A DNA stretch of 64,000 nt, taken from contig JAFUAL010000014.1 of NCBI GenBank assembly GCA_017460745.1, positions 924 through 64,923 of the forward strand. Reading direction: 5' to 3'. Below the pieces are notes generated by a model, which saw only the letters and a list, made by a program, of their open reading frames with translations, was not told the DNA's origin and did not search any database. Shown here in pieces: positions 4,238 through 52,778 of this stretch; position 1 is the first letter of the stretch; each line of letters opens with the position of its first letter. The position numbers and the translations under genes were made by a program. The DNA comes from Bacilli bacterium. Its GTDB lineage: Bacteria > Bacillota_I > Bacilli_A > RF39 > UBA660.

Positions 4238-4834
4238 ATGTTTTATTTTATTATAAAGATTATTTTTTATTTGTTAATTATACTTAGTATATACTATTTT
4301 TTAAATAAACATGAAATAAAAATATTAGAAATTATTATTTTATTATTTATTTTTAATATATGTATTTATTCTATGAACAATAATATTAGTATTATATATA
4401 CTTTAATAACATCTTTAATAATTTTATTAAGTTATTATTTGTATAATTATTTATATAATACAAGTATAAATAAGAAAATAACTAATGATAATGTTATTAT
4501 TAATCGTGGTATAATTAATTTTAATAGTTTAATAAAAGAAAAAATTAGTTATGATAATTTGATATATGAATTAAAAAAGAAGGGGATAGATAATCCAAGT
4601 CTTGTTGATTATTGTATTAGAAAAAATAATGAATTTATTATTTTTAAGAAAAATAGTATTAGAAATTATCCAATTAGTTTAATAATTGATGGAAATATTT
4701 TAAAGGATAATTTATTTAGTATAAATAAAAGCTTAGAATGGATGAATCAAAAAATTATGGAAAATAGTTTAGAACTTAAAGATATTAATTATGCCTATTT
4801 TAAAAATAAAGAGATATATTTTATTACTAATTAG
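4238..4834 (+). CDS. Hypothetical membrane protein with a soluble C-terminal domain
   Basis: 198-aa ORF with an N-terminal TM bundle and a C-terminal ~100-aa soluble region. Confidence 0.35.
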   Translation: MFYFIIKIIFYLLIILSIYYFLNKHEIKILEIIILLFIFNICIYSMNNNISIIYTLITSLIILLSYYLYNYLYNTSINKKITNDNVIINRGIINFNSLIKEKISYDNLIYELKKKGIDNPSLVDYCIRKNNEFIIFKKNSIRNYPISLIIDGNILKDNLFSINKSLEWMNQKIMENSLELKDINYAYFKNKEIYFITN

Positions 4835-4845
4835 TATTAATAGAA

Positions 4846-4875
4846 AAAGTAGCAAGTTTATCTTGTTATTTTTTT
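4846..4875 (+). terminator. Probable intrinsic terminator after the membrane-protein gene cluster
   Basis: agcaag-tttat-cttgtt hairpin (one G-U pair) followed by a T8 run. Confidence 0.35.
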
Positions 4876-4898
4876 CTTTAACCTGTATAATATTGTAG

Positions 4899-7064
<2,166 letters not shown>

Positions 7065-24958: not shown

Positions 24959-25243
24959 ATGTCTAAAAGAAAGATTGTAGAAGAGATTTCAGAGGAGTAT
25001 AAAGAAAGACTTGAAAGACTAGATAGTCTAGAACAAGAGTTTGTTGATTCTGTTGTTAAGTTAAGAAAAGATAAAAAATTAACTCAACAAGAGGTTGCAG
25101 ATGATGCAAGTGTAATTAGAGAAACAATTGCAAGAATTGAAAATCGTATTACATCACCTCAAGTTAATACTTTACTTAAAATTCTTGAACCATTTGGTTA
25201 TACAATTAAAATTACTAAAATAAGTAAGAAAAAAGAAAATTAA
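24959..25243 (+). CDS. XRE-family helix-turn-helix DNA-binding protein
   Basis: HTH LTQQEVADDASVIRETIARIENRITSPQVNTLLKI. RBS GGGTGG precedes ATG 24959. Confidence 0.6.
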   Translation: MSKRKIVEEISEEYKERLERLDSLEQEFVDSVVKLRKDKKLTQQEVADDASVIRETIARIENRITSPQVNTLLKILEPFGYTIKITKISKKKEN

Positions 25244-28769: not shown

Positions 28770-31181
28770 ATGAAAAAGTTTATAAAAGGTTTTCTTGTAG
28801 TATCTTTGTTATTTGGTATATTTTTAGTATCTTTTAACACTTTTGCAGATGATGCTTCTGCGGACAGAGGCGATTTAAGGTGTACACCTGAGTATAAGAA
28901 TGTTAAATGTTGGGAACATGATGATAATAGTGATGGTAAAGTAGATAGAGTTACAATTCCAGTTACTGTAACATCTAGTAGCGGAAACACTTATACACTT
29001 ACAAAGGTTGCAGAAAAAACTCTTGATGAGGGAACTGTCAAAATTCATTTTGAAGTAACAGGTGATGGTTTTACCACGATTACTCACACAACCGAAACAC
29101 CATATGCTGATATTGCGATTTTGCTTGATTATTCAGGTTCGTTTTCAAGCCATGCATCTAGTGCAAAAGCGGCTATTAAGGCTTTTTCAAAAGAATTTTT
29201 TAGTAAAAATACAGATGGTGATTTACGTTATCAAATTGCTTATGCTCAGTTTAATGAAGCATTAGGTGACGATAATAAAACAAAAAAAGTTTCAAATTAT
29301 ATATCCAGTATGGATAATTATACTTTTAGTTGGCCTGGATTATCTGAAGATAAACATTCAGTAGTTAATGATGGTTTATATGTAGTATGGAGAGATATTC
29401 TTGGGGAAGCTACTAGTGGCAAAAGAAGTGATGTACCATCATACCTTATCGTGGTAAGTGATGGTGGTTTTAGAAATTATGGTTCTTATGCAAAGACTCA
29501 TATGACAAAATATAAAAAAGATTGTGGTTCAAGTGGAAGTCTGGGTGCTGAAAAAGGGCATGATGAAATGGAAGATGAAGCTGATATAATAAAAAATACA
29601 TATAATACTACTATAATGGGAATTATTTATAATAATGATAAAACATGTTATGATCATGCGGATAGGTCTGAAGATATGAATGCTATATTGAGCTCTCCGA
29701 ATAATTTAGTTAAAATGTGGGATAACCTTGGAGATACTTCGGAATTGGAATGCGATGAAATCGAAGACAAAGCATGGTGTTTAGCGTTTAATATGATTTA
29801 TAAACAAATTACAACTGGAGAAACTACTACTTATGATCAAATAGTTGCAAGTGGTATGGATTATTATGGCGAACATTTTAGAACAGGTGGAACTGTAAAA
29901 AAATCATTTAATATAAGAAAAGAGCAAGGTGCATCACAACCTTATAAATCAAAATCATTTAAGGTTAGTATAGATGAGACAGTACCAGCAGGATGGTATC
30001 CAACAAATGATGGTTTTGAAGGTAAAATTAGAATTGGAACTGAAGAGTTAACAATTCCTCGTGATAGTAACGTTAATCCTGAAATATATTGGAAACCGAA
30101 TCAACCAGAAAAAGAATGTGGCGTTGGAATAAATTATCCAGGTTCAAAATTTGTAAATACGGTAGAAGATATTTATAGTATTGTTTGTACTGAAGAGTTT
30201 GAAGGTCCACATAAAATAAATGATGGAGTGACACCAATAGAGGGAATGTATGGTTTTTCATCAACTCTTGATTTTAAAACAAATGCAAAATGTACATATC
30301 GATTCGACCAAGCAGAATATAATTCTATAAAAGCAGATTTGGAGGCACAAATAGCAAAGGCAGAAGCAGAATTGACAGAAGAAGAAAAAGAATTTGAAAT
30401 AGCATCTCTTCAACGTCAATTGCAAGATCTAGAAGATAGAAGAACAGCTTATTATAATAAGGTTGATACTACTTATAACAATACTAGTTTTTTACATACA
30501 TATTCAAGTAGTTTTTATGATATAGAAGCATCTTTAGAAGTAACAAGTACAAAATCAACTAAGACGGTTCTATTTGAAGAAGAGGAAAGAAGTGGTGGAG
30601 AAGTTGATTGTAGTGGTTCAAAAGAAAATAGAACATGTACAATGAATGCAGAGAAAAAAATGTATTTACCTATTAGTTGTTTAGATCCAAGTACAGGAAA
30701 TCAGTATGATACGTTACACGATAATTGTATATCGGGCGGTAGAAAATTTTATCCTCCTAAAAATGAAGGCTCTGGACATGCTACGCTGTTTGCAAAACAT
30801 GTAACATACCTTTCATTAGATGTTGAAGCAGGTGGTTCAAAATGTGATTATGGTATGGAAGAGATAAGAGATATATTTTATCGTCAAATAGATGTTGCAG
30901 ATCCCTTTGTTCAAAATACGGCAGGCTCAAGAGCAATAGGAAGAAACTTCCAAAATAATGATTTGAAATATGATTTTGTTAGAATAATAGATGCAAATAT
31001 CTGGGATGGAGAGTATGAATATTTATTCCAGTTAGGAAAAACAGATATTTTAGATGTCAAAAATGAAACTATTGGTGATAGCGCTAAAGTAAAAAGTTAT
31101 TTAGGTGAAGGATGTAGCTTAGACTCAAATAGCAACAAAATTATTTGTCCATTGGTAAGAGAACTACGAAATATGGGATAA
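28770..31181 (+). CDS. Secreted large vWA-domain protein (paralog B2), putative adhesin
   Basis: Signal peptide, GDLRCTPEYKNVKC, vWA with MIDAS ILLDYSGSFSS, the conserved EIYWKPNQPEKECGVGINYPGS block, and a coiled-coil segment. 803 aa. Confidence 0.6.
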   Translation: MKKFIKGFLVVSLLFGIFLVSFNTFADDASADRGDLRCTPEYKNVKCWEHDDNSDGKVDRVTIPVTVTSSSGNTYTLTKVAEKTLDEGTVKIHFEVTGDGFTTITHTTETPYADIAILLDYSGSFSSHASSAKAAIKAFSKEFFSKNTDGDLRYQIAYAQFNEALGDDNKTKKVSNYISSMDNYTFSWPGLSEDKHSVVNDGLYVVWRDILGEATSGKRSDVPSYLIVVSDGGFRNYGSYAKTHMTKYKKDCGSSGSLGAEKGHDEMEDEADIIKNTYNTTIMGIIYNNDKTCYDHADRSEDMNAILSSPNNLVKMWDNLGDTSELECDEIEDKAWCLAFNMIYKQITTGETTTYDQIVASGMDYYGEHFRTGGTVKKSFNIRKEQGASQPYKSKSFKVSIDETVPAGWYPTNDGFEGKIRIGTEELTIPRDSNVNPEIYWKPNQPEKECGVGINYPGSKFVNTVEDIYSIVCTEEFEGPHKINDGVTPIEGMYGFSSTLDFKTNAKCTYRFDQAEYNSIKADLEAQIAKAEAELTEEEKEFEIASLQRQLQDLEDRRTAYYNKVDTTYNNTSFLHTYSSSFYDIEASLEVTSTKSTKTVLFEEEERSGGEVDCSGSKENRTCTMNAEKKMYLPISCLDPSTGNQYDTLHDNCISGGRKFYPPKNEGSGHATLFAKHVTYLSLDVEAGGSKCDYGMEEIRDIFYRQIDVADPFVQNTAGSRAIGRNFQNNDLKYDFVRIIDANIWDGEYEYLFQLGKTDILDVKNETIGDSAKVKSYLGEGCSLDSNSNKIICPLVRELRNMG

Positions 31182-37671: not shown

Positions 37672-37989
37672 ATGTGTAATAGTGATATGCAAATGCTTGT
37701 TGATATAATTATAAAGCTTTTAGATGTCGTACATTTTTTTGTACCTATTGTTCTTATAATATTTTGTACAGTTGATGTTTTTAAAATAATTGTTTCTAAA
37801 AAGGAAGACGAAGTTAAAAAACTACGAAATGATGTATTTTGGAAAATAGTTTATGCAATTGTTATATACTTGATTCCATTTTTAGTACCATTTATTTTAA
37901 GTGCTGCTGATAAAATATTGCCAATGGAGTATGATAATAGTTGGAAAGAATGTTATGATTATGTCAAAAAAAATCAAAATCATAACTAA
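37672..37989 (+). CDS. Small two-TM membrane protein, paralog 1 of a D-[MV]-F-K family (VirB2/TrbC-like topology)
   Basis: TM1 FFVPIVLIIFCTVDVFKIIVS, a charged loop, TM2 IVYAIVIYLIPFLVPFIL. RBS AGGTGAGG. Confidence 0.5.
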   Translation: MCNSDMQMLVDIIIKLLDVVHFFVPIVLIIFCTVDVFKIIVSKKEDEVKKLRNDVFWKIVYAIVIYLIPFLVPFILSAADKILPMEYDNSWKECYDYVKKNQNHN

Positions 37990-38057
37990 TTTGTCAAAAA
38001 GACTTGATTTATTAACTAATATTTAGTATTATAATTTTAGATATGGAGGAAGATTTT

Positions 38058-38522
38058 ATGTTTCAAATATTAGATTTTTGTTCTGCTGATATGCAAGTAC
38101 TAGTATCTGCTGTAAAGACAGTATTTACTTTAATACAAATAGCTATTCCTGGAGTTTTAATTGTTCTTGGTACAATTGATATGTTTAAGGCAATGGCAAG
38201 TGGAGATGAAAAGAAGACAAAAGAGGCTCAAAGAACTTTTGTAAGACGTATGATATATGCAGTTGTTGCTTTCTTAATACCATTTATCATCCGTTTAGTA
38301 TTTAGTTTCATTGCTAATAATATTGGTGCTGATGAAGCTAAAGCTGGTCAAAATTCTTATAATGAATTCTTTGCATGTTGGAATGGAGCTAAATCATCTA
38401 GTGGAAGTGGTAGCGATTCAGGCAGTACTGGCGATTGTAATGTATGTTGGAAAGATGGACAATCTTATACTGGTGTATCAAGAGACAATTGTGAAAATTA
38501 CATGCAAGGTTATTGCTCATAG
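38058..38522 (+). CDS. Small two-TM membrane protein, paralog 2, with Ser/Gly linker and Cys-rich C-terminal tail
   Basis: IAIPGVLIVLGTIDMFKAMASGDEKK...RRMIYAVVAFLIPFIIRLVFSF, then SSSGSGSDSGSTGDCNVCWKDG...CENYMQGYCS. RBS GGAGGAAG. Confidence 0.5.
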   Translation: MFQILDFCSADMQVLVSAVKTVFTLIQIAIPGVLIVLGTIDMFKAMASGDEKKTKEAQRTFVRRMIYAVVAFLIPFIIRLVFSFIANNIGADEAKAGQNSYNEFFACWNGAKSSSGSGSDSGSTGDCNVCWKDGQSYTGVSRDNCENYMQGYCS

Positions 38523-38582
38523 TATTAAGTTAGAAAATTATTTGAAGTCAGATGACTTCATTTTTCTTTAAGAGGTGAATTT

Positions 38583-38993
38583 ATGTTTATTTTAGAATGT
38601 ACAGATACTGTTCAATTATGTTATAATGCTAGAAAAATTTTAATATTAGTTAAAGAATTTATTAAAATATTACAATGGAGTATTCCAGTACTACTAATTG
38701 TCTTAGGAACATGGGATATGTTTAAAGCTGTAACCAAGGGTGATGATCAAAAAGCAGTTCAAGATGCAACAAAAGCATTTATTAGAAGATTAACATCAGG
38801 TGTAATAGTTTTTTTAGTACCCTTTATAATTAGACTTGTATTAGGATTTGTTGAAGACAATATGCTTTCAAGTAGTAATGGAGATGTATCTGCCACTTCT
38901 TGGATAGGTTGTTGGAATAATGTTGATGATAAGAATTCAAGTTATTTTGCAGGATGTAATAATATTTATCAAGGTAGTTCAAGTACTTCATAG
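38583..38993 (+). CDS. Small two-TM membrane protein, paralog 3, with Cys-containing C-terminal tail
   Basis: SIPVLLIVLGTWDMFKAVTKGDDQK...RRLTSGVIVFLVPFIIRLVLGF, then a tail WIGCWNNVDDKNSSYFAGCNN. RBS AGAGGTGA. Confidence 0.5.
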   Translation: MFILECTDTVQLCYNARKILILVKEFIKILQWSIPVLLIVLGTWDMFKAVTKGDDQKAVQDATKAFIRRLTSGVIVFLVPFIIRLVLGFVEDNMLSSSNGDVSATSWIGCWNNVDDKNSSYFAGCNNIYQGSSSTS

Positions 38994-39106: not shown

Positions 39107-41737
39107 ATGAAATATGTTTATTCCTTTAAAGAAGGAAACAAAGACATGCGTAATTTACTAGGTGGTAAAGGCGCAAACTTAGCTGAAATGGCAAATTTAG
39201 GTTTACCTGTTCCTCATGGATTTACTATTACAACAGAAGCTTGTACAGCTTATTATAATGATGGTAAAGAGATAAATGAGGAAATAAGAACCCAAATTGA
39301 TGAATATTTAGTTAAATTAGAAAATGAACAAGGCAAAAAATTTGGAGATACAAGTGATCCACTTTTAGTATCAGTTAGAAGTGGTGCTCGTGCATCAATG
39401 CCAGGAATGATGGATACTATCTTGAATCTTGGTTTAAATGATGAAGCAGTTGAGGGATTTGCTAAGAAAACAAATAACCCAAGATTTGCATACGATTCAT
39501 ATAGAAGATTTATTCAAATGTTTTCTGATGTTGTTATGGAAGTACCAAAGAGTTATTTTGAAAAAATAATTGATGAAGTAAAAGAAGCTCGTGGTATTAA
39601 ATATGATGTTGAATTAACAGTTGAAGATTTAAAAGAATTAGTTACAAAATTTAAAGCAGTTTATAAAGAAAATAGAAATGAAGATTTTCCACAAGATCCA
39701 CATACTCAATTAATGGAAGCAATTAAAGCAGTATTTAGATCATGGGATAATCCAAGAGCAATTGTATATCGTCGTATGAATGATATTCCAGGAGATTGGG
39801 GAACAGCAGTTAATGTTCAATCAATGGTATTTGGAAATATGGGAGATACTAGTGGAACAGGTGTTGCATTTACAAGAAATCCATCTACTGGTGAAAAAGG
39901 AATATTTGGTGAATATTTAATAAATGCTCAAGGAGAAGATGTTGTTGCAGGTGTTCGTACTCCTCAACCTATTTCAAAACTTGAAAGTGATTTACCAGAA
40001 TGTTATAAACAATTCATGGAACTTGCAGAAAAATTAGAAAATCATTATCATGATATGCAAGATATGGAATTTACAATTCAAGAAGGAAAACTATATTTCT
40101 TACAAACAAGAAATGGAAAGAGAACTGCTCCAGCTGCAATTAAAATTGCCTGTGATTTAGTTGATGAAGGAATGATTACACCAGAAGAAGCTGTTTTAAG
40201 AATTGAAGCTAAGAGTTTAGATCAATTATTGCATCCAACATTTGTACCAGATGCTCTTAAAAAAGGAGAAGTTATAGGAGAAGCACTTCCTGCATCACCT
40301 GGTGCTGCAGCAGGTTATGTTGTATTTAATGCCGAAGATGCAAAACGTCTTGGAACAGGTGGAAAAGGTGATAGAGTTGTACTTGTAAGACTTGAAACTA
40401 CTCCAGAAGACATTGAAGGAATGATAGCTAGTCAAGGTATTTTAACTGTTCGTGGAGGAATGACAAGTCATGCTGCTGTTGTTGCTCGTGGTATGGGAAC
40501 TTGTTGTGTATCAGGATGTGGAGATATTCACATGAATGAAGAAGAAAAAGAATTTACTTTAGGTGGATATACATTCCATGAAGGTGATTATATTTCACTT
40601 GATGGTACAACAGGAAAAATTTATAAAGGCGACATTGAAACAATGGATGCAACTGTAAGTGGTAACTTTGGTCGTATCATGGCTTGGGCTGATGAATACA
40701 GAACACTTAAAGTTAAAACAAATGCTGATAATCCAAGAGATACAAGAAAAGCTGTTGAACTTGGGGCTGAAGGAATTGGACTTTGCCGTACAGAACATAT
40801 GTTCTTTGATGAAGAAAGAATTCCAGCAATTCGTAAGATGATTTTAAGTGAAACAGTAGAACAAAGAGAAGAAGCACTTTCACATTTAATTCCATTCCAA
40901 AAAGGTGACTTTAAGGCAATGTATAAGGAATTAAAAGGTCTTCCAATGACAGTTCGTTATTTAGACCCACCACTTCATGAATTTCTACCAAAAGAAGAAA
41001 AAGATATTCGTGCTTTAGCAAGTGACTTAGGTGTAACTTATGAACATTTATTAGAAAAATGTGATGAGTTACATGAATTTAATCCTATGATGGGACATCG
41101 TGGATGTAGATTAGCTGTTACTTATCCAGAAATTGCTCGTATGCAAACACGTGCACTTATGGAAGCAGCAATTGAGGTACATAATGAAGAGGGATTTAAT
41201 ATTGAACCTGAAATTATGATACCACTTGTAGGAGAGAAAAAAGAACTTAAGTATGTTAAAGATGTAGTAGTAGCAGAAGCTGAAAAAGTAAAAGAAGAAT
41301 TAAAATCAGATATTAAATATCATATTGGTACAATGATTGAAATTCCACGTGCTGCTGTTACTGCAGATCAAATTGCTGAAGAAGCTGAATTCTTCTCATT
41401 CGGAACAAATGATTTAACTCAAATGACATTTGGATTCTCAAGAGATGATGCTGGTAAATTCTTAGATAGTTATTATAAAGCAAAAATCTATGAACAAGAT
41501 CCATTTGCAAGACTTGATACAACAGGTGTAGGAACACTTATTAGAATGGCTGCTGAAAAAGGTAGAGCAACTCGTCCAGAACTTGAACTTGGAATATGTG
41601 GAGAACATGGTGGAGATCCTTCATCAATTGAATTCTGTAATGAAGTAGGACTTAACTATGTATCTTGTAGTCCATTTAGAGTACCTATAGCACGTCTTGC
41701 TGCTGCTCAAGCTGCTATTAATAAAAAAAATAGATAA
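39107..41737 (+). CDS. ppdK: Pyruvate, phosphate dikinase
   Basis: 876 aa. The N-terminus GGKGANLAEM (ATP-grasp), the phosphohistidine region GGMTSHAAVVARGMG and the C-terminal PEP-utilising domain (CGE...) are all present. Confidence 0.95.
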   Translation: MKYVYSFKEGNKDMRNLLGGKGANLAEMANLGLPVPHGFTITTEACTAYYNDGKEINEEIRTQIDEYLVKLENEQGKKFGDTSDPLLVSVRSGARASMPGMMDTILNLGLNDEAVEGFAKKTNNPRFAYDSYRRFIQMFSDVVMEVPKSYFEKIIDEVKEARGIKYDVELTVEDLKELVTKFKAVYKENRNEDFPQDPHTQLMEAIKAVFRSWDNPRAIVYRRMNDIPGDWGTAVNVQSMVFGNMGDTSGTGVAFTRNPSTGEKGIFGEYLINAQGEDVVAGVRTPQPISKLESDLPECYKQFMELAEKLENHYHDMQDMEFTIQEGKLYFLQTRNGKRTAPAAIKIACDLVDEGMITPEEAVLRIEAKSLDQLLHPTFVPDALKKGEVIGEALPASPGAAAGYVVFNAEDAKRLGTGGKGDRVVLVRLETTPEDIEGMIASQGILTVRGGMTSHAAVVARGMGTCCVSGCGDIHMNEEEKEFTLGGYTFHEGDYISLDGTTGKIYKGDIETMDATVSGNFGRIMAWADEYRTLKVKTNADNPRDTRKAVELGAEGIGLCRTEHMFFDEERIPAIRKMILSETVEQREEALSHLIPFQKGDFKAMYKELKGLPMTVRYLDPPLHEFLPKEEKDIRALASDLGVTYEHLLEKCDELHEFNPMMGHRGCRLAVTYPEIARMQTRALMEAAIEVHNEEGFNIEPEIMIPLVGEKKELKYVKDVVVAEAEKVKEELKSDIKYHIGTMIEIPRAAVTADQIAEEAEFFSFGTNDLTQMTFGFSRDDAGKFLDSYYKAKIYEQDPFARLDTTGVGTLIRMAAEKGRATRPELELGICGEHGGDPSSIEFCNEVGLNYVSCSPFRVPIARLAAAQAAINKKNR

Positions 41738-41826
41738 TTTGATATAAAGGTTAAATAGAAATATTTAATCTTTTTTATTGACAATGTAATGCATATTTGC
41801 TATCATAATTGATGAGGTAATAGTTA

Positions 41827-42093
41827 ATGAAAAATGAGAATGAATATATTATAAATGATGAAGAGTTTGATTTAATATGTAAATATGTAAAAATCAGATA
41901 TGAATCAAAAGTAAGCCAAAGAGAGTTAGCTAAAAAAATAGGAATAGCTCAATCTACTATTGCTAGAATGGAGAAGAATATACATTCTATGTCAATTGGA
42001 AATTTTACTAAATTATTATCAGCACTTGGTTACAAATTAGAAATTATAGAGAAGGAGGATCAACATGGAAAACAAAATAATAGCATTAACTAA
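41827..42093 (+). CDS. XRE-family HTH protein, copy 1
   Basis: HTH SQRELAKKIGIAQSTIARMEKN. It is 99% identical over 76 aa to copy 2 (43093-43341). Confidence 0.6.
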   Translation: MKNENEYIINDEEFDLICKYVKIRYESKVSQRELAKKIGIAQSTIARMEKNIHSMSIGNFTKLLSALGYKLEIIEKEDQHGKQNNSIN

Positions 42094-42895
42094 ATCATTT
42101 GAAGATGAAAAAATAAGAACAGTATGGAATAAGGAAGAAGAAAAATATTATATTAGTATAGTTGATATGATTAAAGTATTAACAGAAAGCACTGAACCTA
42201 GGAAATATTGGAATTGGTTAAAGAATAAATTACTAAAAGAAGAAAATTTTGAAACGTCTAGTATTACTAGACAGTTGAAATTAAAAGCAACAGATGGAAA
42301 AATGAGATTAACGGATGTTGTAGATATTGAAGGAATGTTTAGAGTTATTGAATCTATTCCATCAAAAAAAGCTGAACCTATTAAGTTATGGCTTGCTCAC
42401 CTTGGAAAAGAAAGAATAGATGAAGAATATGATCCTGAGATAACAATTAATAGAGCACTTGAAGCATATCGAAGAAAAGGTTACTCTGATGATTGGATTA
42501 ATCAAAGATTGAAAGCAATAGATGCCAGAAAAGAATTTACTGATGAATTAAAAAATAATGGTATTGAAAGTAGTAAGGATTTTGCTATACTAACAGATTT
42601 ATTAACTAAAACATGGAGTGGATATTCAACAAAAGAGTATAAGTCATATAAAGGATTAACTAAAGAAAACTTAAGGGATAATATGACTAATATGGAATTA
42701 GTATTAAATATGCTTGCAGAGGCAACCTCTACAGAAATAGCAAAATCAAATAATGAGAAAAGCAAAGAAAATGCAAGAAGTTCAGTAATTGAAGGTGGCA
42801 CTATTGCTAAAAACACAAGAGAACAAATAGAGCGAAAAACAGGAAAGAAAATAGTAACAAATATTAACAATAAAAATATAAAGCAAATAAAATAA
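42065..42895 (+). CDS. RhuM-family (Bro-N/virulence-protein RhuM-like) protein, copy 1
   Basis: The N-terminus IRTVWNKEEEKYYISIVDMIKVLTES matches the RhuM family signature (ETVWLTQAQMAELF...). Confidence 0.55.
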   Translation: MENKIIALTKSFEDEKIRTVWNKEEEKYYISIVDMIKVLTESTEPRKYWNWLKNKLLKEENFETSSITRQLKLKATDGKMRLTDVVDIEGMFRVIESIPSKKAEPIKLWLAHLGKERIDEEYDPEITINRALEAYRRKGYSDDWINQRLKAIDARKEFTDELKNNGIESSKDFAILTDLLTKTWSGYSTKEYKSYKGLTKENLRDNMTNMELVLNMLAEATSTEIAKSNNEKSKENARSSVIEGGTIAKNTREQIERKTGKKIVTNINNKNIKQIK

Positions 42896-42976
42896 AGTAT
42901 TGTAAGAGTTATTTTAACATAAATTTATATTGAAGACACTTTATGGTCTTACTGCAAGGCAGATAAGATAGTAGTA

Positions 42977-43092
42977 CAAGCTGCTATTAATAAAAAATAG
43001 ATAATTATGATATAAAGGTTAAATAAAAATATTTATTTTTTTATTGACAATATAATGCGTATTTGCTGTCATGACTAATGAGGTAATAGTTA
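42977..43092 (+). repeat. Second copy of a ~350-bp direct repeat (41707-42060 / 42977-43325) that includes the last ~30 nt of ppdK, the promoter region, and the HTH gene
   Basis: caagctgctattaataaaaaa(aa)tagataatt...ttgacaat[g/a]taatgc[a/g]tatttgct[a/g]tcat... aligns with the ppdK 3' end and downstream region at >90% identity. Confidence 0.7.
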
Positions 43093-43341
43093 ATGAAAAA
43101 TAAGAATGAATATATTATAAATGATGAAGAGTTTGATTTAATATGTAAATATGTAAAAATCAGATATGAATCAAAAGTAAGCCAAAGAGAGTTAGCTAAA
43201 AAAATAGGAATAGCCCAATCTACTATTGCTAGAATGGAGAAGAATATACATTCTATGTCAATTGGGAATTTTACTAAATTATTATCGGCACTTGGTTACA
43301 AATTAGAAATTATAGAGAAGGAGGCCAAAAATGAAAAATAA
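43093..43341 (+). CDS. XRE-family HTH protein, copy 2
   Basis: Identical to copy 1 except E4K and a different C-terminal tail. Confidence 0.6.
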   Translation: MKNKNEYIINDEEFDLICKYVKIRYESKVSQRELAKKIGIAQSTIARMEKNIHSMSIGNFTKLLSALGYKLEIIEKEAKNEK

Positions 43342-44188
43342 CAAATTAGAAACTATTTCAAATTTATTTGAAGGTCAGGAAATAAGAAGTATATGGGATA
43401 AAGAGAAAGAAGAATATTATTTTAGTGTAGTAGATGTTATAAGTGCATTAACTGATGCAACTATACCTAAAAGATATTGGAGCGATTTAAAACGAGAGCT
43501 AATAAATGAAGGTAGTCAGTTGTACGAAAAAATCGTACAACTGAAGTTAAAGTCCTCAAAGGATGGTAAAAATTATTTAACTGATACACTAGATACTGAA
43601 GGTATATTTAGACTTATTGAATCAGTTCCTAGTCCTAAGGCAGAACCATTTAAATTATGGTTAGCCAAACTTGGTAGACAAAAGGTTGATGAAATATTTG
43701 ATCCTTCTAAAGGAATTGATGAGATGATAGATTTTTATTTAAAAAAAGGATACACATTAGAATGGATTGAAGCTAGAATTAAAGCTATTATTGATCGAAA
43801 AAGGCTTACTAAAGTATGGAATGATGGTGGTGTTAAAGAAGGAAAAGAATATGCAATGCTTACTAATGCTATTTATAAAGAATGGTCTGGTATGACTGCA
43901 TCAGAATATAAAGCATTTAAAGGTATAAGAAAAGAAAATTTAAGGGATAATATGTCTAGAATTGAAGTATTATTAACTGACTTAGGTGAATTAGCAGCTC
44001 ATGATATTGCTGAAGAGGAGCACCCCCAAGGTTTTAGAGAAAATGTAAAAGCAGCTAAGCGTGGTGGAAAGGTTGCAAAAGATGCTAGAAATTCATATGA
44101 AAAAGCAACAAAAAAGTCAGCAATTTCAAAAAATAATTCTTTAAAGTATAAATATATAGATGAAAACAATAAAATAGAAAAAAGGTAA
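43331..44188 (+). CDS. RhuM-family protein, copy 2 (diverged, ~50% identical to copy 1)
   Basis: QEIRSIWDKEKEEYYFSVVDVISALTDA and the conserved KENLRDNM block are shared with copy 1. Confidence 0.55.
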   Translation: MKNNKLETISNLFEGQEIRSIWDKEKEEYYFSVVDVISALTDATIPKRYWSDLKRELINEGSQLYEKIVQLKLKSSKDGKNYLTDTLDTEGIFRLIESVPSPKAEPFKLWLAKLGRQKVDEIFDPSKGIDEMIDFYLKKGYTLEWIEARIKAIIDRKRLTKVWNDGGVKEGKEYAMLTNAIYKEWSGMTASEYKAFKGIRKENLRDNMSRIEVLLTDLGELAAHDIAEEEHPQGFRENVKAAKRGGKVAKDARNSYEKATKKSAISKNNSLKYKYIDENNKIEKR

Positions 44189-44257
44189 ATGTTTTAGTTT
44201 AGTTCTTTTATATTCGAACTATAAAAAAGTAAAAATAAATATGATGCATATAATATA

Positions 44258-44530
44258 ATGGTGATGTTTATGTATAATTTACAAGATGCTTTGCATGCTG
44301 CTTTAATATTAGGAGTTGACTTTTATAATTTTAGTCCAGAAGATTTTTTAAATGGAATTAATATTGAAATGGAACATGGAACTGTAAATAAAGAAACAAA
44401 TGTAACAAATGATAATTTAATTATGACGGCTAAGATTGCATTAGCACATTTAAATGAATTTCCTAATTATTATAATAAAGAATATGGTTTAGGAAAATTT
44501 GAAGAATTTTTGAAAAGTAAACTAAAATAA
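44258..44530 (+). CDS. Small hypothetical protein
   Basis: 90-aa ORF (alternative start at 44270). No recognisable domain. Confidence 0.3.
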   Translation: MVMFMYNLQDALHAALILGVDFYNFSPEDFLNGINIEMEHGTVNKETNVTNDNLIMTAKIALAHLNEFPNYYNKEYGLGKFEEFLKSKLK

Positions 44531-44645
44531 GCAATATTTGAACAAAAATATTGCTTTAATTATAATTTTTTTGATTTTGTTTTATATTAGGTTTGATTAT
44601 TTTTCAAATTTATATTAAAATATACTCGTTAAAGGGGAGATTAGT

Positions 44646-45917
44646 ATGTTTATAGATGAAGTAAAAATTGAAGTAATTGCTGGAAATGGAGGCGACGGGT
44701 GTACTGCTTTTCGTCGTGAAAAATATGTTGCTATGGGTGGTCCATTTGGTGGAGATGGAGGACGTGGCTCTGATATTATTTTTAAAGTTGATACTGGGCT
44801 TCATACTTTAATTGACCTTAGATATATGAAAAGAATTAAAGGTAAAAAAGGTGAAAATGGAACTGGTAAAAACATGAATGGAAGCGATGCCGAAGATGTT
44901 ATTATAAAGGTACCACAGGGAACAGTTATAAGTGATTATGAGACAAATTTAGTTATAGCAGATTTAAAAGATAAAGATTCGGAGTTCGTAGTAGCTAAAG
45001 GTGGCCGTGGTGGATATGGGAATACACATTTTAAAACTATTTCAAATCCTGCTCCAAATTTTTCAGAGAATGGAGAACCAGGAGAAGCTAAAACTTTAAA
45101 ACTTGAATTAAAGTTACTTGCTGATGTTGGACTTGTTGGTTTACCAAGTGTTGGAAAAAGTACAATTTTATCATGTGTATCAAAAGCTAAACCAAAGATA
45201 GCAGATTATCATTTTACAACATTAACACCTAATCTTGGAGTTGTAAAAACTAAAGATAATAGAAGTTTTGTTATGGCCGATTTACCTGGCCTTATTGAAG
45301 GAGCAAGTGAAGGATTAGGTCTTGGTGATAAATTTTTAAGACATATTGAAAGAACAAAAGTAATTGCTCATGTTATAGATATGGGTGGGGTTGAAGGCAG
45401 AGACCCATATGAGGATTTTGTATTAATTAATAAAGAATTAGAATCTTTTAGTGATAAATTAATTAAAAAACCAATGATAGTTATTGCTAATAAAATGGAT
45501 ATGCCAAATAGTCAGGAAAATTTAGAAAAATTTAAAGAAAAAGTTGATTTAGAAATTTTTCCTATAAGTGCAATTACAAAGACAGGACTTGATCCAGTTC
45601 TTATTAAACTTGCCGATTTAATTGAAACGACACCTGACACTCCTTTATATGCTGAATCTGAATATATATCACATGTTTTATATAAATATGAAGAAGAAAA
45701 ACCATTTACAGTAGAAAAAGTAGATAATAAATACATTATTAAGGGTAAAGTAGTAGAAAGAATGTTTCAAATGGCTAATTTTCAATCTGAGGAAGGTATA
45801 GAAAGATTTTTACATCAAATTAAAAAACTTGGAGTAGATGCTGAACTTGAAAAGATGGGAATTAAGGATGGAGATAGAGTTATCATATCAGATTTTGAAT
45901 TTGTTTATCAAAAATAG
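44646..45917 (+). CDS. obg: GTPase Obg/CgtA
   Basis: The Obg fold N-terminus MFIDEVKIEVIAGNGGDGCTAFRREKY, G1 GLPSVGKST, G3 DLPGLIEGA, and a C-terminal OCT/TGS-like domain. Confidence 0.95.
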   Translation: MFIDEVKIEVIAGNGGDGCTAFRREKYVAMGGPFGGDGGRGSDIIFKVDTGLHTLIDLRYMKRIKGKKGENGTGKNMNGSDAEDVIIKVPQGTVISDYETNLVIADLKDKDSEFVVAKGGRGGYGNTHFKTISNPAPNFSENGEPGEAKTLKLELKLLADVGLVGLPSVGKSTILSCVSKAKPKIADYHFTTLTPNLGVVKTKDNRSFVMADLPGLIEGASEGLGLGDKFLRHIERTKVIAHVIDMGGVEGRDPYEDFVLINKELESFSDKLIKKPMIVIANKMDMPNSQENLEKFKEKVDLEIFPISAITKTGLDPVLIKLADLIETTPDTPLYAESEYISHVLYKYEEEKPFTVEKVDNKYIIKGKVVERMFQMANFQSEEGIERFLHQIKKLGVDAELEKMGIKDGDRVIISDFEFVYQK

Positions 45918-50825: not shown

Positions 50826-51803
50826 ATGTGTGAAAATGTATTGTTTTTAAGAATATTAAGTTTTTTTTATACTGCAATGAGTTTTTTAAGATTTACTATT
50901 CCAATTATTTTAATAATAAAATTAACTTTTGATATATATAAAGGGATAATAAATACAAATGATAATTCATTTAAAGAGAAAGTAAGTCGTAGAATAATTG
51001 CATGTGTTATTATCTTTTTAGTACCAACAATTATAAATGTTTTTTTAGGATTAATTGAAACAGTAACGGGGATGGCATTTAATTATTCAGAGTGTACTGC
51101 TAATATAAAAAATATAGATTATTATGTTGAGAAAAGAGAACTTGAGGAAAAACTTTTATATGAAAAAGAAAGTAGTGAAGCATATCAAAAGTATCAAAAT
51201 GCTATTAATGATTTAACCAAAAAGATACAGGAAAGTTCAAGTAGTACAGGAAGCGGAGATGCAACAGCTATTAGAATAGGTGAAAAATATAATGTTACCG
51301 ATAAACAATTAGAAAATATTGCAAAAGTATGCCAAAGAGAACAAGGACGACCAGAGGGAGCTGCTGCAGAGGCTGAGTTAATGATAAATAAATATGTTTT
51401 AAGTGGATATAGTGGTTCTTTCTATGACTATTTATTTAATTCTAGTAATGGAAATTGGTGGCATCCAATTAAGGCTGGTAACTATGGTTCAACTAAATTA
51501 AAACCTGAAATAAAAGAAGCAGTTAGAAAAGTAGTAGTTGAGGGTCAAAGAAAGTATCCAGCTTACATAAATGAACATGATTGTATTAGTTGTGGAGATG
51601 TTTTATATATAAAAACAGATGGCCAAAGTGCAAATAAAAATAACAGAAGTGATTTTGTTCAAGATAAAACATTTGTTTATACAAAATATAAACAAAATTC
51701 TAAAGTTAAGTATTGGATATTCTATGCTTTTCCAGATGAAAAAAGTGATCCATTTGGTTATACTTATGATGCAAAAGATAAGTTAGCCGCGATCAGTAAG
51801 TAG
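50826..51803 (+). CDS. Two-TM D-x-Y-K family N-terminal domain fused to a ~230-aa C-terminal domain of unknown function (tandem paralog 1)
   Basis: The N-terminus FTIPIILIIKLTFDIYKGIINT...RRIIACVIIFLVPTIINVFLGL is homologous to the three small proteins at 37.6-39.0 kb. A SSSTGSGD linker follows, then a C-terminal domain with conserved Cys/His (KVCQREQG...NEHDCISCG). Confidence 0.55.
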   Translation: MCENVLFLRILSFFYTAMSFLRFTIPIILIIKLTFDIYKGIINTNDNSFKEKVSRRIIACVIIFLVPTIINVFLGLIETVTGMAFNYSECTANIKNIDYYVEKRELEEKLLYEKESSEAYQKYQNAINDLTKKIQESSSSTGSGDATAIRIGEKYNVTDKQLENIAKVCQREQGRPEGAAAEAELMINKYVLSGYSGSFYDYLFNSSNGNWWHPIKAGNYGSTKLKPEIKEAVRKVVVEGQRKYPAYINEHDCISCGDVLYIKTDGQSANKNNRSDFVQDKTFVYTKYKQNSKVKYWIFYAFPDEKSDPFGYTYDAKDKLAAISK

Positions 51804-51809
51804 GTAGTT

Positions 51810-52778
51810 ATGTGTGAGAATGTATTATTTTTAAGAATATTAAGTTTTTTTAATACTGCAATGAGTTTTCTAAGATTTGCTATTCCAATTATTTTAATAA
51901 TAAAATTAACTTTAGATATATATAAGGGAATAATAAATACAAATGATAATTCATTTAAAGAGAAAGTAAGTCGTAGAATAATTGCATGTGTTATTATCTT
52001 TTTAGTACCAACAATTATAAATGTTTTTTTAGGATTAATTGAAACAGCAACAGGAATGTCATTTAATTATTCAGAGTGTATTGCTAATATAAAAAATATA
52101 GAATATTATGTAGAAAAAAGAGAACTTGAAGAAAAACTTTTATATGAAAAAGAAAGTAGTGAAGCATATCAAAAGTATCAAAATGCTATTAATGATTTAA
52201 CCAAAAAGATACAGGAAAGTTCAAGTAGTACAGGAAGTGGAGATGCAACAGCTATTAGAATAGGTGAAAAATATAACGTTACCGATAAACAATTAGAAAA
52301 TATTGCTAAAGTATGTCAAAGAGAACAAGGACGACCAGAGGGAGCAGCCGCAGAGGCCGAGTTAATGATAAATAAATATGTTTTAAGTGGATATAGTGGC
52401 TCTCTTTATGACTATTTATTTAATTCTAGTAATGGTCGTTGGTGGCATCCAATTAAGGCTGGTAACTATGGCTCAACTAATTTAAAACCGGAGATAAAAG
52501 AAGCAGTTAGAAAAGTAGTAGTTGAAGGTCAAAGAAAATATCCGGCTTATATAAATGAACATGATTATTTTGGTGATATATCTAAAATTGTTACAAATGG
52601 TCAAAGTACAAGTAGTAGTTCTAGTATAAAAACACGTACAAATTATGTAAAAGATAACACCGTTATTTATAATAAAATGGGTTCAGTTTATACTTTTTAT
52701 ATGTTTCCAGATGATAAAAGTGATCCATTTGGTTATACTGTTAAGGCTAAAGAAAAAGTAGATGCAATGAATAAATAG
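51810..52778 (+). CDS. Tandem paralog 2 of the same fusion protein, with divergent C-terminal ~75 aa
   Basis: Near-identical to paralog 1 over ~245 aa, then diverges (NEHDYFGDISKIVTNGQSTSSSSS...). Confidence 0.55.
   Translation: MCENVLFLRILSFFNTAMSFLRFAIPIILIIKLTLDIYKGIINTNDNSFKEKVSRRIIACVIIFLVPTIINVFLGLIETATGMSFNYSECIANIKNIEYYVEKRELEEKLLYEKESSEAYQKYQNAINDLTKKIQESSSSTGSGDATAIRIGEKYNVTDKQLENIAKVCQREQGRPEGAAAEAELMINKYVLSGYSGSLYDYLFNSSNGRWWHPIKAGNYGSTNLKPEIKEAVRKVVVEGQRKYPAYINEHDYFGDISKIVTNGQSTSSSSSIKTRTNYVKDNTVIYNKMGSVYTFYMFPDDKSDPFGYTVKAKEKVDAMNK

Follow-up and report, generated by a model that had tools for sequence, protein, structure and literature searches.

The 64-kb stretch of DNA analysed here (the window) contains two units at the 3′ end of ppdK, which start at 41708 and 42977 (spacing 1266–1269 nt) and each comprise the final 30 nt of ppdK and a promoter, followed by one XRE-HTH gene and one Bro-N gene; this two-unit layout is as an earlier note on the sequence had described it, with the second gene then assigned differently. 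The ppdK tail motif (CAAGCNGCNATHAAW) occurs twice, as compared to 0.01 occurrences expected by chance per 64 kb. The features are listed below under the cassette names that our interpretation gives them.

39107..41737, + strand: ppdK (pyruvate, phosphate dikinase), open reading frame of 876 aa
41708..41737, + strand: tail copy 1, left end of cassette 1, CAAGCTGCTATTAATAAAAAAAATAGATAA, encoding QAAINKKNR*
41708..42058, + strand: putatively homogenised 5′ module, copy 1, approximately 95% identical to 42977–43324
41749..41770, + strand: AT-rich inverted repeat, GGTTAAATA-GAAA-TATTTAATC, directly upstream of the -35 box
41778..41806, + strand: cassette 1 promoter, TTGACA-17-TATCAT, extended TG
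41827..42093, + strand: HTH1, XRE-family, 88 aa, Pfam HTH_3 (4e-11), 29-nt overlap with Bro1
42065..42895, + strand: Bro1, 276 aa, Bro-N (residues 16-111) and helical C-terminal part, PADLOC PDC-S13
42896..42976, + strand: right end of cassette 1 (RE-D), ending …GGTCTTACTGCAAGGCAGATAAGATAGTAGTA at junction 42976|42977
42977..43000, + strand: tail copy 2, left end of cassette 2, CAAGCTGCTATTAATAAAAAATAG, encoding QAAINKK*
42977..43324, + strand: putatively homogenised 5′ module, copy 2
43044..43072, + strand: cassette 2 promoter, TTGACA-17-TGTCAT
43093..43341, + strand: HTH2, XRE-family, 82 aa, Pfam HTH_3 (3.4e-11), 11-nt overlap with Bro2
43331..44188, + strand: Bro2, 285 aa, Bro-N and helical C-terminal part, PADLOC PDC-S13
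44189..44257, + strand: distal boundary of cassette 2, apparently eroded

PpdK carries the Pfam domains PPDK_N, PEP-utilizers, and PEP-utilizers_C (matched on an identical protein) and has relatives in 80 genomes that are 73–84% identical; its last 10 codons (41708–41737) are provided by cassette 1. Tail copy 1 follows an attL-like junction at 41707|41708 and is homologous to cassette-starting tails in other loci, with the homology always starting at CAAGC, and tail copy 2 forms an attR-like junction with RE-D. Copy 1 of the 5′ module holds the tail, the AT-rich palindrome, the promoter, and HTH codons 1–77. The palindrome, which could act as a weak terminator or else serve as an auxiliary operator, is kept in many cassettes with an alpha-type HTH gene; others present a GC-containing terminator hairpin instead. 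The cassette 1 promoter is the best promoter-like site of the region in a promoter scan (11/12), and its spacer, which is conserved with alpha-type HTH genes and different with beta-type genes, contains an imperfect inverted repeat (AATGCA-TATT-TGCTAT) representing a putative HTH operator. While the promoter reported in the earlier note for both units is present in unit 1, unit 2 has TGTCAT as its -10 box, degenerate as compared to the family consensus TATCAT, and its promoter was not called in the scan. The protein encoded by HTH2 is present in identical form on 8 contigs. The last ~32 nt of RE-D are homologous to the right end of a Bro1-like cassette in another ppdK array, L146 (…GGTCCTATTGCTAGTCAGATAAGACAGCAGTA|CAAGC). 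Neither a right-end module nor a third tail was found in 44189..44257, where only TTTTAGTT resembles the start of RE-B, a right end that closes Bro2-type cassettes elsewhere.

Identity between the units is 88–100% per 60-nt segment from 41708 to ~42058 (42977–43324 in unit 2) and drops abruptly to 45–78% at the HTH/Bro boundary. The first 351 nt are approximately 95% identical (20 alignment columns differ, including three right where the tract ends), which bears out the near-identity of the 5′ parts reported earlier. The single difference reported between the HTH proteins was found across their first 77 aa (E4K), but their C-termini are unlike (…EDQHGKQNNSIN vs. …EAKNEK); the proteins encoded at the 3′ side, for which about 50% identity had been given, are strongly divergent, with a slightly lower identity of 43% (118/275). 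The 5′ and 3′ parts differ in age: where a codon specifies the same amino acid in both units, its third base is conserved in 96% of cases in HTH and in 61% in Bro, and Bro four-fold sites are 27% identical, as compared to a chance level of 39%, so that Bro synonymous sites are saturated. Since the sequence following unit 1 (42896–42976) is unrelated to that following unit 2 (44189–44257), the repeat is not a full tandem duplication. Bro1 and Bro2 fall in separate clades, each with 85–89% relatives in other genomes, and represent old, separate lineages. Bro1-like genes are also paired with two unrelated HTH families, which points to regulator/effector shuffling.

The two HTH genes in the window share 98% DNA identity with each other, and none of the 16 other alpha-type HTH genes compared exceeds 86% identity to them; across genomes, 5′ modules show 76–98% DNA identity. 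An independent tandem (L105) has HTH copies that are 100% identical over the 127 nt available and Bro proteins that are 69% identical, and one strain (L003) carries the cassette 2 allele at site 42021 of cassette 1. In L146, two adjacent cassettes with the same HTH type are only 80% identical; homogenisation is therefore not a general rule. Later gene conversion of the 5′ module, one of the mechanisms that the earlier note had offered, is probably the best reading of this combination of a young 5′ part and an old 3′ part, but is indistinguishable from an effector swap by homologous recombination.

In related metagenome loci, every cassette identified in arrays downstream of ppdK is bounded by the ppdK tail (CAAGCYGCWAT…stop). 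The junctions are precise: all 39 non-redundant junctions (6 between ppdK and a tail and 33 between an RE and a tail) lie on the ppdK strand, start with CAAGC, and keep the in-frame stop codon, and in none of them does the homology reach the equally conserved upstream ppdK codons. Loci L098 and L099 share 100% identity over at least 300 nt on the right side of |CAAGC, and their left sides are unrelated. REs are common to cassettes with unrelated cargo. Arrays adjacent to ppdK are found in L100, L109, L146 (with six tails), and L081; the PpdK of these hosts shows only 69–81% identity to that of the window. Many cassettes are tiny, with a length of 0.6–2.4 kb and one or two genes under a promoter of their own, and as many as five are packed in ~7 kb. 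Sequences flanking the junction showed no consistent dyad symmetry, which leaves the crossover dinucleotide undefined.

Autonomous elements of 6–7 kb with the same ends as the cassettes encode a large serine recombinase (LSR). One such element in L081, 7.1 kb long and flanked by a tail on either side, codes for an LSR that has Resolvase, Recombinase, and Zn-ribbon domains; LSR homologues adjoin tails in L099, L102, and L104, and a remnant is present in L109. The genes for two LSR relatives are located 3–5 kb downstream of ppdK on the same strand in 11 of the 11 places listed. A 6.3-kb element with the same left tail and RE is present at this ppdK position in four host backgrounds, and a different native tail, which it has displaced, follows it in each. 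A segment of L091 (6898–8891) has the ends of the L081-type element without the LSR and is a non-autonomous derivative. In L099, RE-B, which closes HTH-Bro2-type cassettes elsewhere, sits at, and overlaps, the 3′ end of an LSR gene. The ppdK-tail site thus appears, from these sequence comparisons, to be used by serine-recombinase elements in many uncultured gut Bacilli. No LSR of the relevant family was found in the 64-kb window, in agreement with the earlier remark that no integrase is visible there, so that no recombinase is tied to its two cassettes; no autonomous element with RE-D was found either.

Because tails bound the cassettes and LSR elements are found at the same site, the window would contain two recombinase-less cassettes at attB, and we consider it likely that the region is the ppdK-proximal part of an integrative-cassette array, not a duplication. 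In the window's lineage of uncultured low-GC gut Bacilli, a single LSR family would mobilise elements that integrate at one ppdK position, between the …LAAA and QAAI… codons (30 nt before the ppdK stop codon in the window). The left end of each element would bring its own copy of the final ppdK codons, so that ppdK stays intact, and a family-specific RE of 60–90 nt would form the other end, with the previous tail shifted downstream at insertion. Repeated insertion at the ppdK-tail junction would then give arrays of the form tail-cargo-RE|tail-cargo-RE|…. Cassette 1 would correspond to 41708–42976 and cassette 2 to 42977 to ~44190, both placed by an LSR acting in trans; because cassette 2, with its eroded distal end, has neither a right end nor a third tail, the end of the array is set by comparison with other genomes. 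Each cassette forms a self-contained operon with a sigma-70-type promoter that the XRE-HTH protein probably represses, and the overlapping HTH and Bro genes are probably translationally coupled. The 5′ modules would have become near-identical after the cassettes were neighbours, likely by gene conversion over the sole sufficiently similar stretch, which extends from the tail up to where the HTH gene ends; we infer both the direction and the mechanism of this homogenisation.

A true tandem duplication, by which a 1.27-kb segment was copied and the Bro halves then diverged fast under diversifying selection while HTH was constrained, would account for the regular spacing of 1266–1269 nt and the like gene order, and fast evolution is possible for defence-type genes. 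However, this reading, in line with the term used in the earlier note, is already contradicted and very improbable: saturated Bro synonymous sites beside 96% conservation in HTH mean that protein-level selection cannot explain the pattern, the separate clades and unrelated 3′ flanks described above speak against it, and elsewhere Bro1-like genes are accompanied by the right end of unit 1. An assembly artefact, in which a repeat was collapsed or expanded or two strains with different Bro alleles at one locus were merged into a chimera, is even less probable; this reading draws on the origin of the window in a metagenome assembly and on a shared 351-nt module that exceeds short-read length. Yet the same architecture and order are present on eight contigs from at least six samples and different assemblers, with an identity of at least 99.9%; three contigs cover the whole architecture, and the short contigs L002 and L003 cross the internal junction, covering Bro1-RE-tail-HTH2-Bro2. 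In addition, the copies are resolvable since they differ at 17–20 positions, and the tail-bounded design is found again in unrelated genomes. The comparison of related strains proposed in the earlier note gave no variation in copy number or cassettes, as all layouts are alike among sampled strains of the window's species, with no empty site, copy-number variant, or circular form, which counts against the cassette reading.

Gain and exchange of the cassettes by homologous recombination alone (e.g., by transformation), with the conserved ppdK end and HTH module as flanking homology and no site-specific recombinase at this locus, is also improbable, if less so than the two preceding explanations. 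No recombinase is present in the window, the 5′ modules (76–98% DNA identity across genomes) would give homology, and the homogenised tract itself would show such recombination acting at the locus. Against this, all 39 junctions start at the same base and never run into the conserved upstream ppdK codons, internal junctions are bordered on their left by unrelated REs, which provide no homology, and LSR-bearing elements are found at the same site. These same-base junctions and the recombinase-bearing elements in several hosts fit the site-specific insertion at the ppdK tail that the earlier note had listed among its explanations.

The long genes had been assigned to the RhuM family; this assignment was rejected, as Pfam gives Bro-N (2.6e-6 for Bro1, which also matches phrog_15286) and no RhuM match. 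Both proteins match the PADLOC family PDC-S13 over their full length (1.5e-110 for Bro1; 1e-110 and 1e-107 for the pair in the window). Residues 147-256 of Bro1 match DinD of E. coli weakly (23 bits, far below the NCBIfam cut-off of 242). For the AF2 model of Bro2, which is of moderate confidence (pLDDT 74), the only significant Foldseek matches in the PDB are to DdrC (7qvb, 8u0g, and 7udi; E 7e-7 to 3e-5), with a TM-score of only 0.36–0.48; in Deinococcus, DdrC is a dimeric sensor of DNA nicks and breaks (PMC11347143). The Bro proteins thus combine a Bro-N domain with a DinD/DdrC-like helical part, probably bind DNA, and belong to a candidate phage-defence family, and the family HMM and the model together suggest a role in defence. 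PDC-S13 is mentioned in no paper of the literature searched. Alternatively, though this seems unlikely, the HTH-Bro pairs could be leftover phage or satellite repressor/antirepressor or toxin-antitoxin-like modules with no host-beneficial defence. Some sources label Bro-N proteins “phage antirepressor”, a naming in line with this alternative, as are BFVD fold matches to phage Bro-N/KilA-N proteins. Moreover, Xre-Bro two-gene modules have been predicted to be toxin-antitoxin-like regulatory modules (Makarova et al. 2009, PMC2701414), and in pneumococcus a Bro protein was toxic while its Xre partner neither neutralised it nor served as an antitoxin (Chan et al. 2014, PMC4257102). However, no phage structural or replication genes were found near any cassette examined, and the full-length PADLOC match and the presence of AbiU2 and DNA methyltransferase genes in neighbouring array cargo would favour a role in defence.

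The arrays resemble the composite SCCmec/ψSCC islands of staphylococci, whose insertion into the 3′ end of rlmH (orfX) is driven by the Ccr large serine recombinases: in both, an LSR inserts at one position near where a housekeeping gene ends, the element brings replacement terminal codons, direct repeats of the site bound every element, and recombinase-less elements gather in tandem beside autonomous ones. Here, however, the target is ppdK in uncultured gut Bacilli, many of the cassettes are very small, the cargo consists of regulator-effector pairs rather than resistance genes, and mobilisation in trans is what we infer. Streptococcus thermophilus also shows tandem accretion, at the fda 3′ end (CIMEs, ICESt1, and ICESt3), where the target is likewise the 3′ end of a glycolytic/gluconeogenic gene and att-flanked non-autonomous elements lie in tandem with autonomous ones; those elements, however, rely on tyrosine integrases and span tens of kilobases. 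Integrons (IntI, attI, attC) share small, mostly one-gene cassettes in a single orientation, a discrete 60–90-nt recombination module per cassette that is common to unrelated cargoes, and, if only the ppdK-tail junction acts as attB, insertion proximal to a fixed platform. In contrast to integrons, the ppdK arrays have neither an IntI tyrosine recombinase nor an attC-type GTTRRRY core, and a housekeeping gene serves, with its coding end, as their platform, their cassettes have their own promoters, and the enzyme associated with them is a serine recombinase. While PDC-S13 is a single-gene model, the gene is nearly always behind an overlapping XRE-HTH gene in the loci examined. Like the previously described Xre-Bro modules, the cassettes in the window are mobile units of two genes, one for a small Xre HTH protein and one for a Bro-N protein, although here the HTH gene comes first and the C-terminal domain is unlike the ORF6C type of pneumococcus.

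The 3′ end of ppdK is followed by two units with the same order of elements, i.e., the last 30 nt of ppdK (the tail, starting with CAAGC), an AT-rich inverted repeat, a promoter, an XRE-HTH gene, and a long gene overlapping the HTH gene. The features of this region are:

39107–41737, + strand: ppdK, encoding a full-length PpdK of 876 aa
41708, + strand: start of unit 1, with the last 30 nt of ppdK
42977, + strand: start of unit 2, 1,266–1,269 nt from the start of unit 1
+ strand, one per unit: promoter, TTGACA-17-TATCAT in unit 1; -10 box TGTCAT in unit 2
41827–42093, + strand: XRE-HTH gene of unit 1 (HTH1)
43093–43341, + strand: XRE-HTH gene of unit 2 (HTH2)
42065–42895, + strand: long gene of unit 1 (Bro1, 276 aa), overlapping HTH1
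43331–44188, + strand: long gene of unit 2 (Bro2, 285 aa), overlapping HTH2

In a global alignment of the two units, identity per 60-nt window was 88–100% from 41708 to ~42058 and fell abruptly to 45–78% exactly at the HTH/Bro boundary. The shared tract is ~95% identical overall (20 differing alignment columns), bearing out the near-identical 5′ modules and divergent 3′ halves described in an earlier note, although Bro1 and Bro2 proved to be 43% identical at the protein level rather than the "about 50%" given there. At codons for identical amino acids, third bases matched at 96% in the HTH genes versus 61% in the Bro genes, where four-fold sites matched at 27% (chance level, 39%); the two halves are thus of very different ages. 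A simple tandem segmental duplication, as the earlier note had named the arrangement, would require uniform divergence and repetition of both unit ends, and is ruled out by the identity step, the contrast at synonymous sites, and the unrelated 3′ flanks of the two units. An assembly artefact is also unlikely, since eight contigs from at least six samples all carry the same layout at ≥99.9% identity and short contigs of the same species span the internal junction. An apparent frameshift in Bro1 of one such contig (L003) was a 13-N scaffold gap. The tail motif occurs twice in the window (41708 and 42977), as compared to 0.01 occurrences expected per 64 kb; tail-like matches at 29166, 40130, and 21185 are one-mismatch coding matches. 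An Rfam scan of 41000–45000 gave just one sub-threshold match, to a CRISPR repeat.

Several other genes in the window deserve mention. At least five paralogous genes (37672–38993, 50850–51059, and 51804–52043) encode small (~105–160 aa) hydrophobic proteins with no Pfam match; three of them are consecutive and immediately precede ppdK, and the same trio is found upstream of ppdK in L060 and L100. A further XRE-type HTH coding region (25031–25201) is 33% identical to HTH1/HTH2 over 57 aa. Between the cassettes and obg lies a gene encoding a 90-aa DUF5661 protein (44258–44530), followed by a hairpin; this gene may be native or a remnant of a further cassette.

The small proteins belong to the XRE-family HTH (Pfam HTH_3, about 4e-11); their scores with the HipB and Y4mF antitoxin models were below the cut-offs. 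Both long proteins, which had been labeled RhuM-family, have Bro-N (PF02498; 28.4 and 37.9 bits versus a 25.6 cut-off, residues 16–112) as their sole Pfam match at E ≤ 0.01, and neither matched the RhuM family HMM (PF13310, Virulence_RhuM). Both also matched phrog_15286 (function unknown) and, over their full length, the PADLOC family PDC-S13 (Bro1, 1.5e-110, residues 9–275; Bro2, 1.5e-107, residues 10–280), a candidate phage-defence family. The C-terminal half of Bro1 matched the DinD model (NCBIfam NF008573) at 23 bits, below the 242-bit equivalog cut-off; Bro2 showed no match to this model. A moderate-confidence AlphaFold2 model of Bro2 (pLDDT 74) found Deinococcus DdrC as its sole significant fold match in the PDB (E 7e-7 to 3e-5, TM 0.30–0.48), while its viral fold matches were Bro-N/KilA-N proteins; a PDB sequence search with Bro2 gave nothing significant. 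The DdrC protein is dimeric and recognises both nicked DNA and double-strand breaks (PMC11347143). The Bro family is large (1,393 clusters at 50% identity, E ≤ 1e-30), with carriers labeled as "Bacilli bacterium" MAGs in the source databases. Xre-Bro pairs were earlier treated as toxin-antitoxin-like regulatory modules (PMC2701414), and a pneumococcal Bro protein was toxic without being neutralised by its Xre partner (PMC4257102); the cassettes described here fit type II toxin-antitoxin systems in operon layout (overlapping genes) only. We found no mention of PDC-S13 in the searchable literature.

Proteins similar to Bro2 (73–85% identical) and to Bro1 (80–89%) are each common in other metagenome contigs, and in most contexts examined an HTH gene of the 80-aa class overlaps or abuts the Bro gene; one context (L085–L090) had no HTH gene called upstream of Bro. 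In two contigs with no ppdK gene in the stretch examined (L084 and L091), the DNA upstream of the HTH gene is homologous to the window's promoter region and to the "ppdK tail", with the tail homology beginning sharply at CAAGC. PpdK relatives in GTDB genomes were at best 73–84% identical; none had HTH-Bro after ppdK and obg was not adjacent, such that synteny helped little in locating an empty site, with only the MAG locus L081 being informative. In two other contigs (L123:1750–6760 versus L124:6515–6750), mscL and an HTH-Bro1-like module flank a tRNA gene with the anticodon CAT. L123 carries a ~5-kb insert exactly at the 3′ end of this tRNA gene, with …CTACCAT repeated at the far side; the insert encodes an ABC-F ATPase and a radical-SAM protein as well as a fragment of a Resolvase domain. 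The site resembles a second integration hot spot beside the same kind of module.

A metagenome scan with the HTH alignment, together with later look-ups, identified arrays of tail-bounded cassettes downstream of ppdK in hosts whose PpdK is only 69–81% identical to that of the window. Tails in three of these arrays start at:

L100: 4979, 5879, 7145
L109: 2714, 4459, 7148, 8710, 9292
L146: 4232, 6603, 7915, 9173, 9885, 11441

All 39 non-redundant junctions (6 ppdK|tail and 33 right end|tail) are on the ppdK strand, start at CAAGC, and keep an in-frame tail and stop (QAAIKAKKN* and variants). To the left of the internal junctions are families of right ends (RE), discrete 60–90-nt modules common to cassettes with unrelated cargo. 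Two loci, L098 and L099, share 100% identity over at least 300 nt on the right side of the junction and show no relationship on its left side, identifying the junction as a recombination breakpoint. No centre of dyad symmetry stands out around the junction (about 3–5 of 14 pairs everywhere). A second tail in L006 was a chance match inside ffh, and a scan of viral contigs for the tail gave 12 matches, all in one unrelated phage coding sequence, and no phage attP.

Cargo in these arrays is varied. Directly after an HTH-Bro1-like cassette, L146:7915–9173 encodes a beta-type XRE-HTH (one of two HTH families, alpha and beta) and a 250-aa KilA-N protein and ends in RE-B; the regulator type of Bro cassettes is thus also paired with a different, related DNA-binding effector. 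Two cassettes (L109:2714–4459 and L147:730–2440) have the same ~75-nt right end and different cargo, namely an ABC-F ATPase (possibly for ribosome-protection-type resistance) and a 427-aa HisRS-like protein. A stretch of ~7.1 kb between two ppdK-type tails (L154:11703–18829) contains genes for MarR, groES/groEL, HSP20, a cold-shock protein, thioredoxin, and a RelA/SpoT-domain protein; the array system would thus also carry stress-response genes. The first cassette of the L146 array contains a pair of IS3-family transposase genes (HTH_Tnp_1 and rve; 4362–5602), indicating that IS elements also accumulate in such arrays.

A large serine recombinase (LSR) adjoins the att site in related loci only (L081, L099, and L149–L159). 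In L081, the ppdK tail is separated from a second tail by 7.1 kb of inserted DNA encoding AbiU2, an HTH protein, and a 532-aa LSR with Resolvase, Recombinase, and Zn-ribbon domains. Homologues of this LSR abut tails in L099, L102, and L104, with a 27-aa remnant in L109; in L099, the reading frame of the recombinase extends across RE-B and reaches into the tail. The family is abundant, with protein clusters of hundreds of member sequences. In 11 of the 11 places shown for the relatives P0393 (97% identical) and P0433 (69%), the gene follows ppdK at a distance of 3–5 kb and in the same orientation. Four host backgrounds (L154–L157) contain the 6.3-kb P0433 element with the same left tail and RE; the native tail that follows it is different and host-specific in each, a hallmark of site-specific integration at a single ppdK position. 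Non-autonomous derivatives also exist, as L091 (6898–8891) carries the ends of an L081-type element without the recombinase. The proposal of site-specific insertion at the ppdK tail thus gains from the fixed-base junctions and from the LSR elements at the same site in related loci; against it, the 64-kb window contains no LSR homologue; the earlier statement that no integrase was visible holds for this recombinase family. Called genes within ~5–7 kb on either side of the cassettes have housekeeping Pfam domains or none, and no recombinase domain is found among them. An integron was rejected, as there was no IntI/attI, no tyrosine recombinase linked to the arrays, no GTTRRRY in the …GTA|CAAGC junctions, and no consistent dyad symmetry; a XerC-like gene is found upstream of ppdK in L154, L155, L158, and L159, and is absent from L156 and L157, which have the same element.

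Read against these arrays, the two units of the window are cassettes with the following limits:

41708–42976, + strand: cassette 1, with tail, promoter, HTH1, Bro1, and right end RE-D
from the second tail at 42977, + strand: cassette 2, lacking both a right-end module and a third tail

The final ~32 nt of RE-D are found again behind the Bro1-like gene of the L146 array. Searches downstream of Bro2 yielded neither a right end nor a third tail, and short BLAST gave no RE-D match in other loci; L146 supplied the match described above. As cassette 2 has neither a right end nor a third tail, it has lost its distal boundary. Should ppdK|tail be the only attB-like sequence, newly arriving elements would insert proximally and cassette 1 would be the younger arrival, which fits the erosion of the distal end. 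The circle formed by excision of cassette 1 would have a junction reading …GATAAGATAGTAGTA joined to CAAGCTGCTATTAATAAAAAAAATAGATAATTTGAT, and the matching empty site would read ppdK …GCTGCTGCT joined to CAAGCTGCTATTAATAAAAAATAGATAATTATGAT; the eight contigs of this species, all alike, include neither an empty site nor a circular form. The element restores the ppdK frame, with insertion in the 3′ end of a conserved gene and an in-frame stop kept in every tail.

The near-identity of the two 5′ modules calls for a separate explanation. Among 18 cassettes, alpha-type HTH genes are 75–98% identical at the DNA level; the two copies in the window share 98% identity, and neither exceeds 86% with any other copy. 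The identical tract, from the tail to the Bro ribosome-binding site, is the whole stretch of possible homology between the two cassettes. In other loci, the HTH partner of a Bro1-like effector comes from one of two unrelated families (30% protein identity), and regulator and effector have therefore been re-assorted. Gene conversion, also proposed in the earlier note, is favored by the homogenised HTH gene beside old Bro genes, a mosaic repeated in an independent tandem, L105 (HTH copies 100% identical over the 127 nt available; Bro proteins 69%), but in L146 the HTH genes of adjacent cassettes, although of one type, are just 80% identical. A suggestive single site is 42021 A>G in strain L003, where the base is the allele of the other copy, as conversion would predict. 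The simplest account is that gene conversion, or a homologous exchange equivalent to it, took place once the two cassettes were adjacent. A homogenised regulator beside divergent effectors in two independent tandems offers a clear natural case of concerted evolution confined to those parts of neighboring cassettes that can recombine.

The promoter spacer contains an imperfect inverted repeat (AATGCA-TATT-TGCTAT; perfect in L147, GTAGCA-AATA-TGCTAC), and the spacer element AATGCATATTTGCTAT is a putative HTH binding site (predicted operator). This repeat is kept with alpha-type HTH genes and replaced by …GTTGC…ATAGAACA… with beta-type HTH genes, a co-variation suggesting that the HTH protein may repress its own promoter. 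The 11–29 nt overlap of the Bro gene with the HTH gene suggests coupled translation. In cassette 2 (43044–43072), the -10 box is TGTCAT versus TATCAT in the family and two positions of the putative operator are altered; the region between the cassettes showed no terminator-like site. Cassette 2 may thus be more weakly expressed, differently regulated, or reliant on read-through from cassette 1. In the effector, the DNA-binding Bro-N domain is followed by a helical region that may resemble DdrC and DinD; the effector would bind abnormal or foreign DNA, with paralogues differing in specificity. A defence role for the Bro effector is possible, if somewhat doubtful. These data place PDC-S13, an uncharacterised PADLOC candidate, in a conserved operon with an XRE regulator and tentatively link it to DNA-damage-response proteins (DdrC by fold, DinD by a weak sequence match), raising the idea that the PDC-S13 protein may sense broken or foreign DNA.

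We tentatively propose a serine-recombinase equivalent of the integron that could have the ppdK tail as its platform, with RE|tail attP-like and ppdK|tail the sole attB-like site; an LSR acting in trans would excise, circularise, and proximally re-insert promoter-bearing cassettes of one or two genes without a directionality factor. If so, gut Bacilli, which to our knowledge lack classical integrons, would gain a shuffling store of accessory genes, with many of the cassettes carrying candidate defence genes (e.g., XRE + PDC-S13). The data define an integration system, with a precise attB in ppdK, an abundant LSR family, and several 60–90-nt RE families; as LSR/att pairs are sought after as genome-engineering tools, it is relevant that the ppdK-site LSRs come with natural examples of attB, attL, and attR. 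No description of ppdK as an integration site was found in the searchable literature. Cassette accumulation here would work like that of SCCmec/ψSCC at rlmH and like CIME accretion at fda. The ppdK arrays differ from integron arrays in having no IntI and no attC core and in cassettes with their own promoters, but resemble them in cassette size and discrete end modules; these arrays of very small, self-promoted, att-bounded cassettes in Bacilli have an integron-like layout associated with a serine recombinase.
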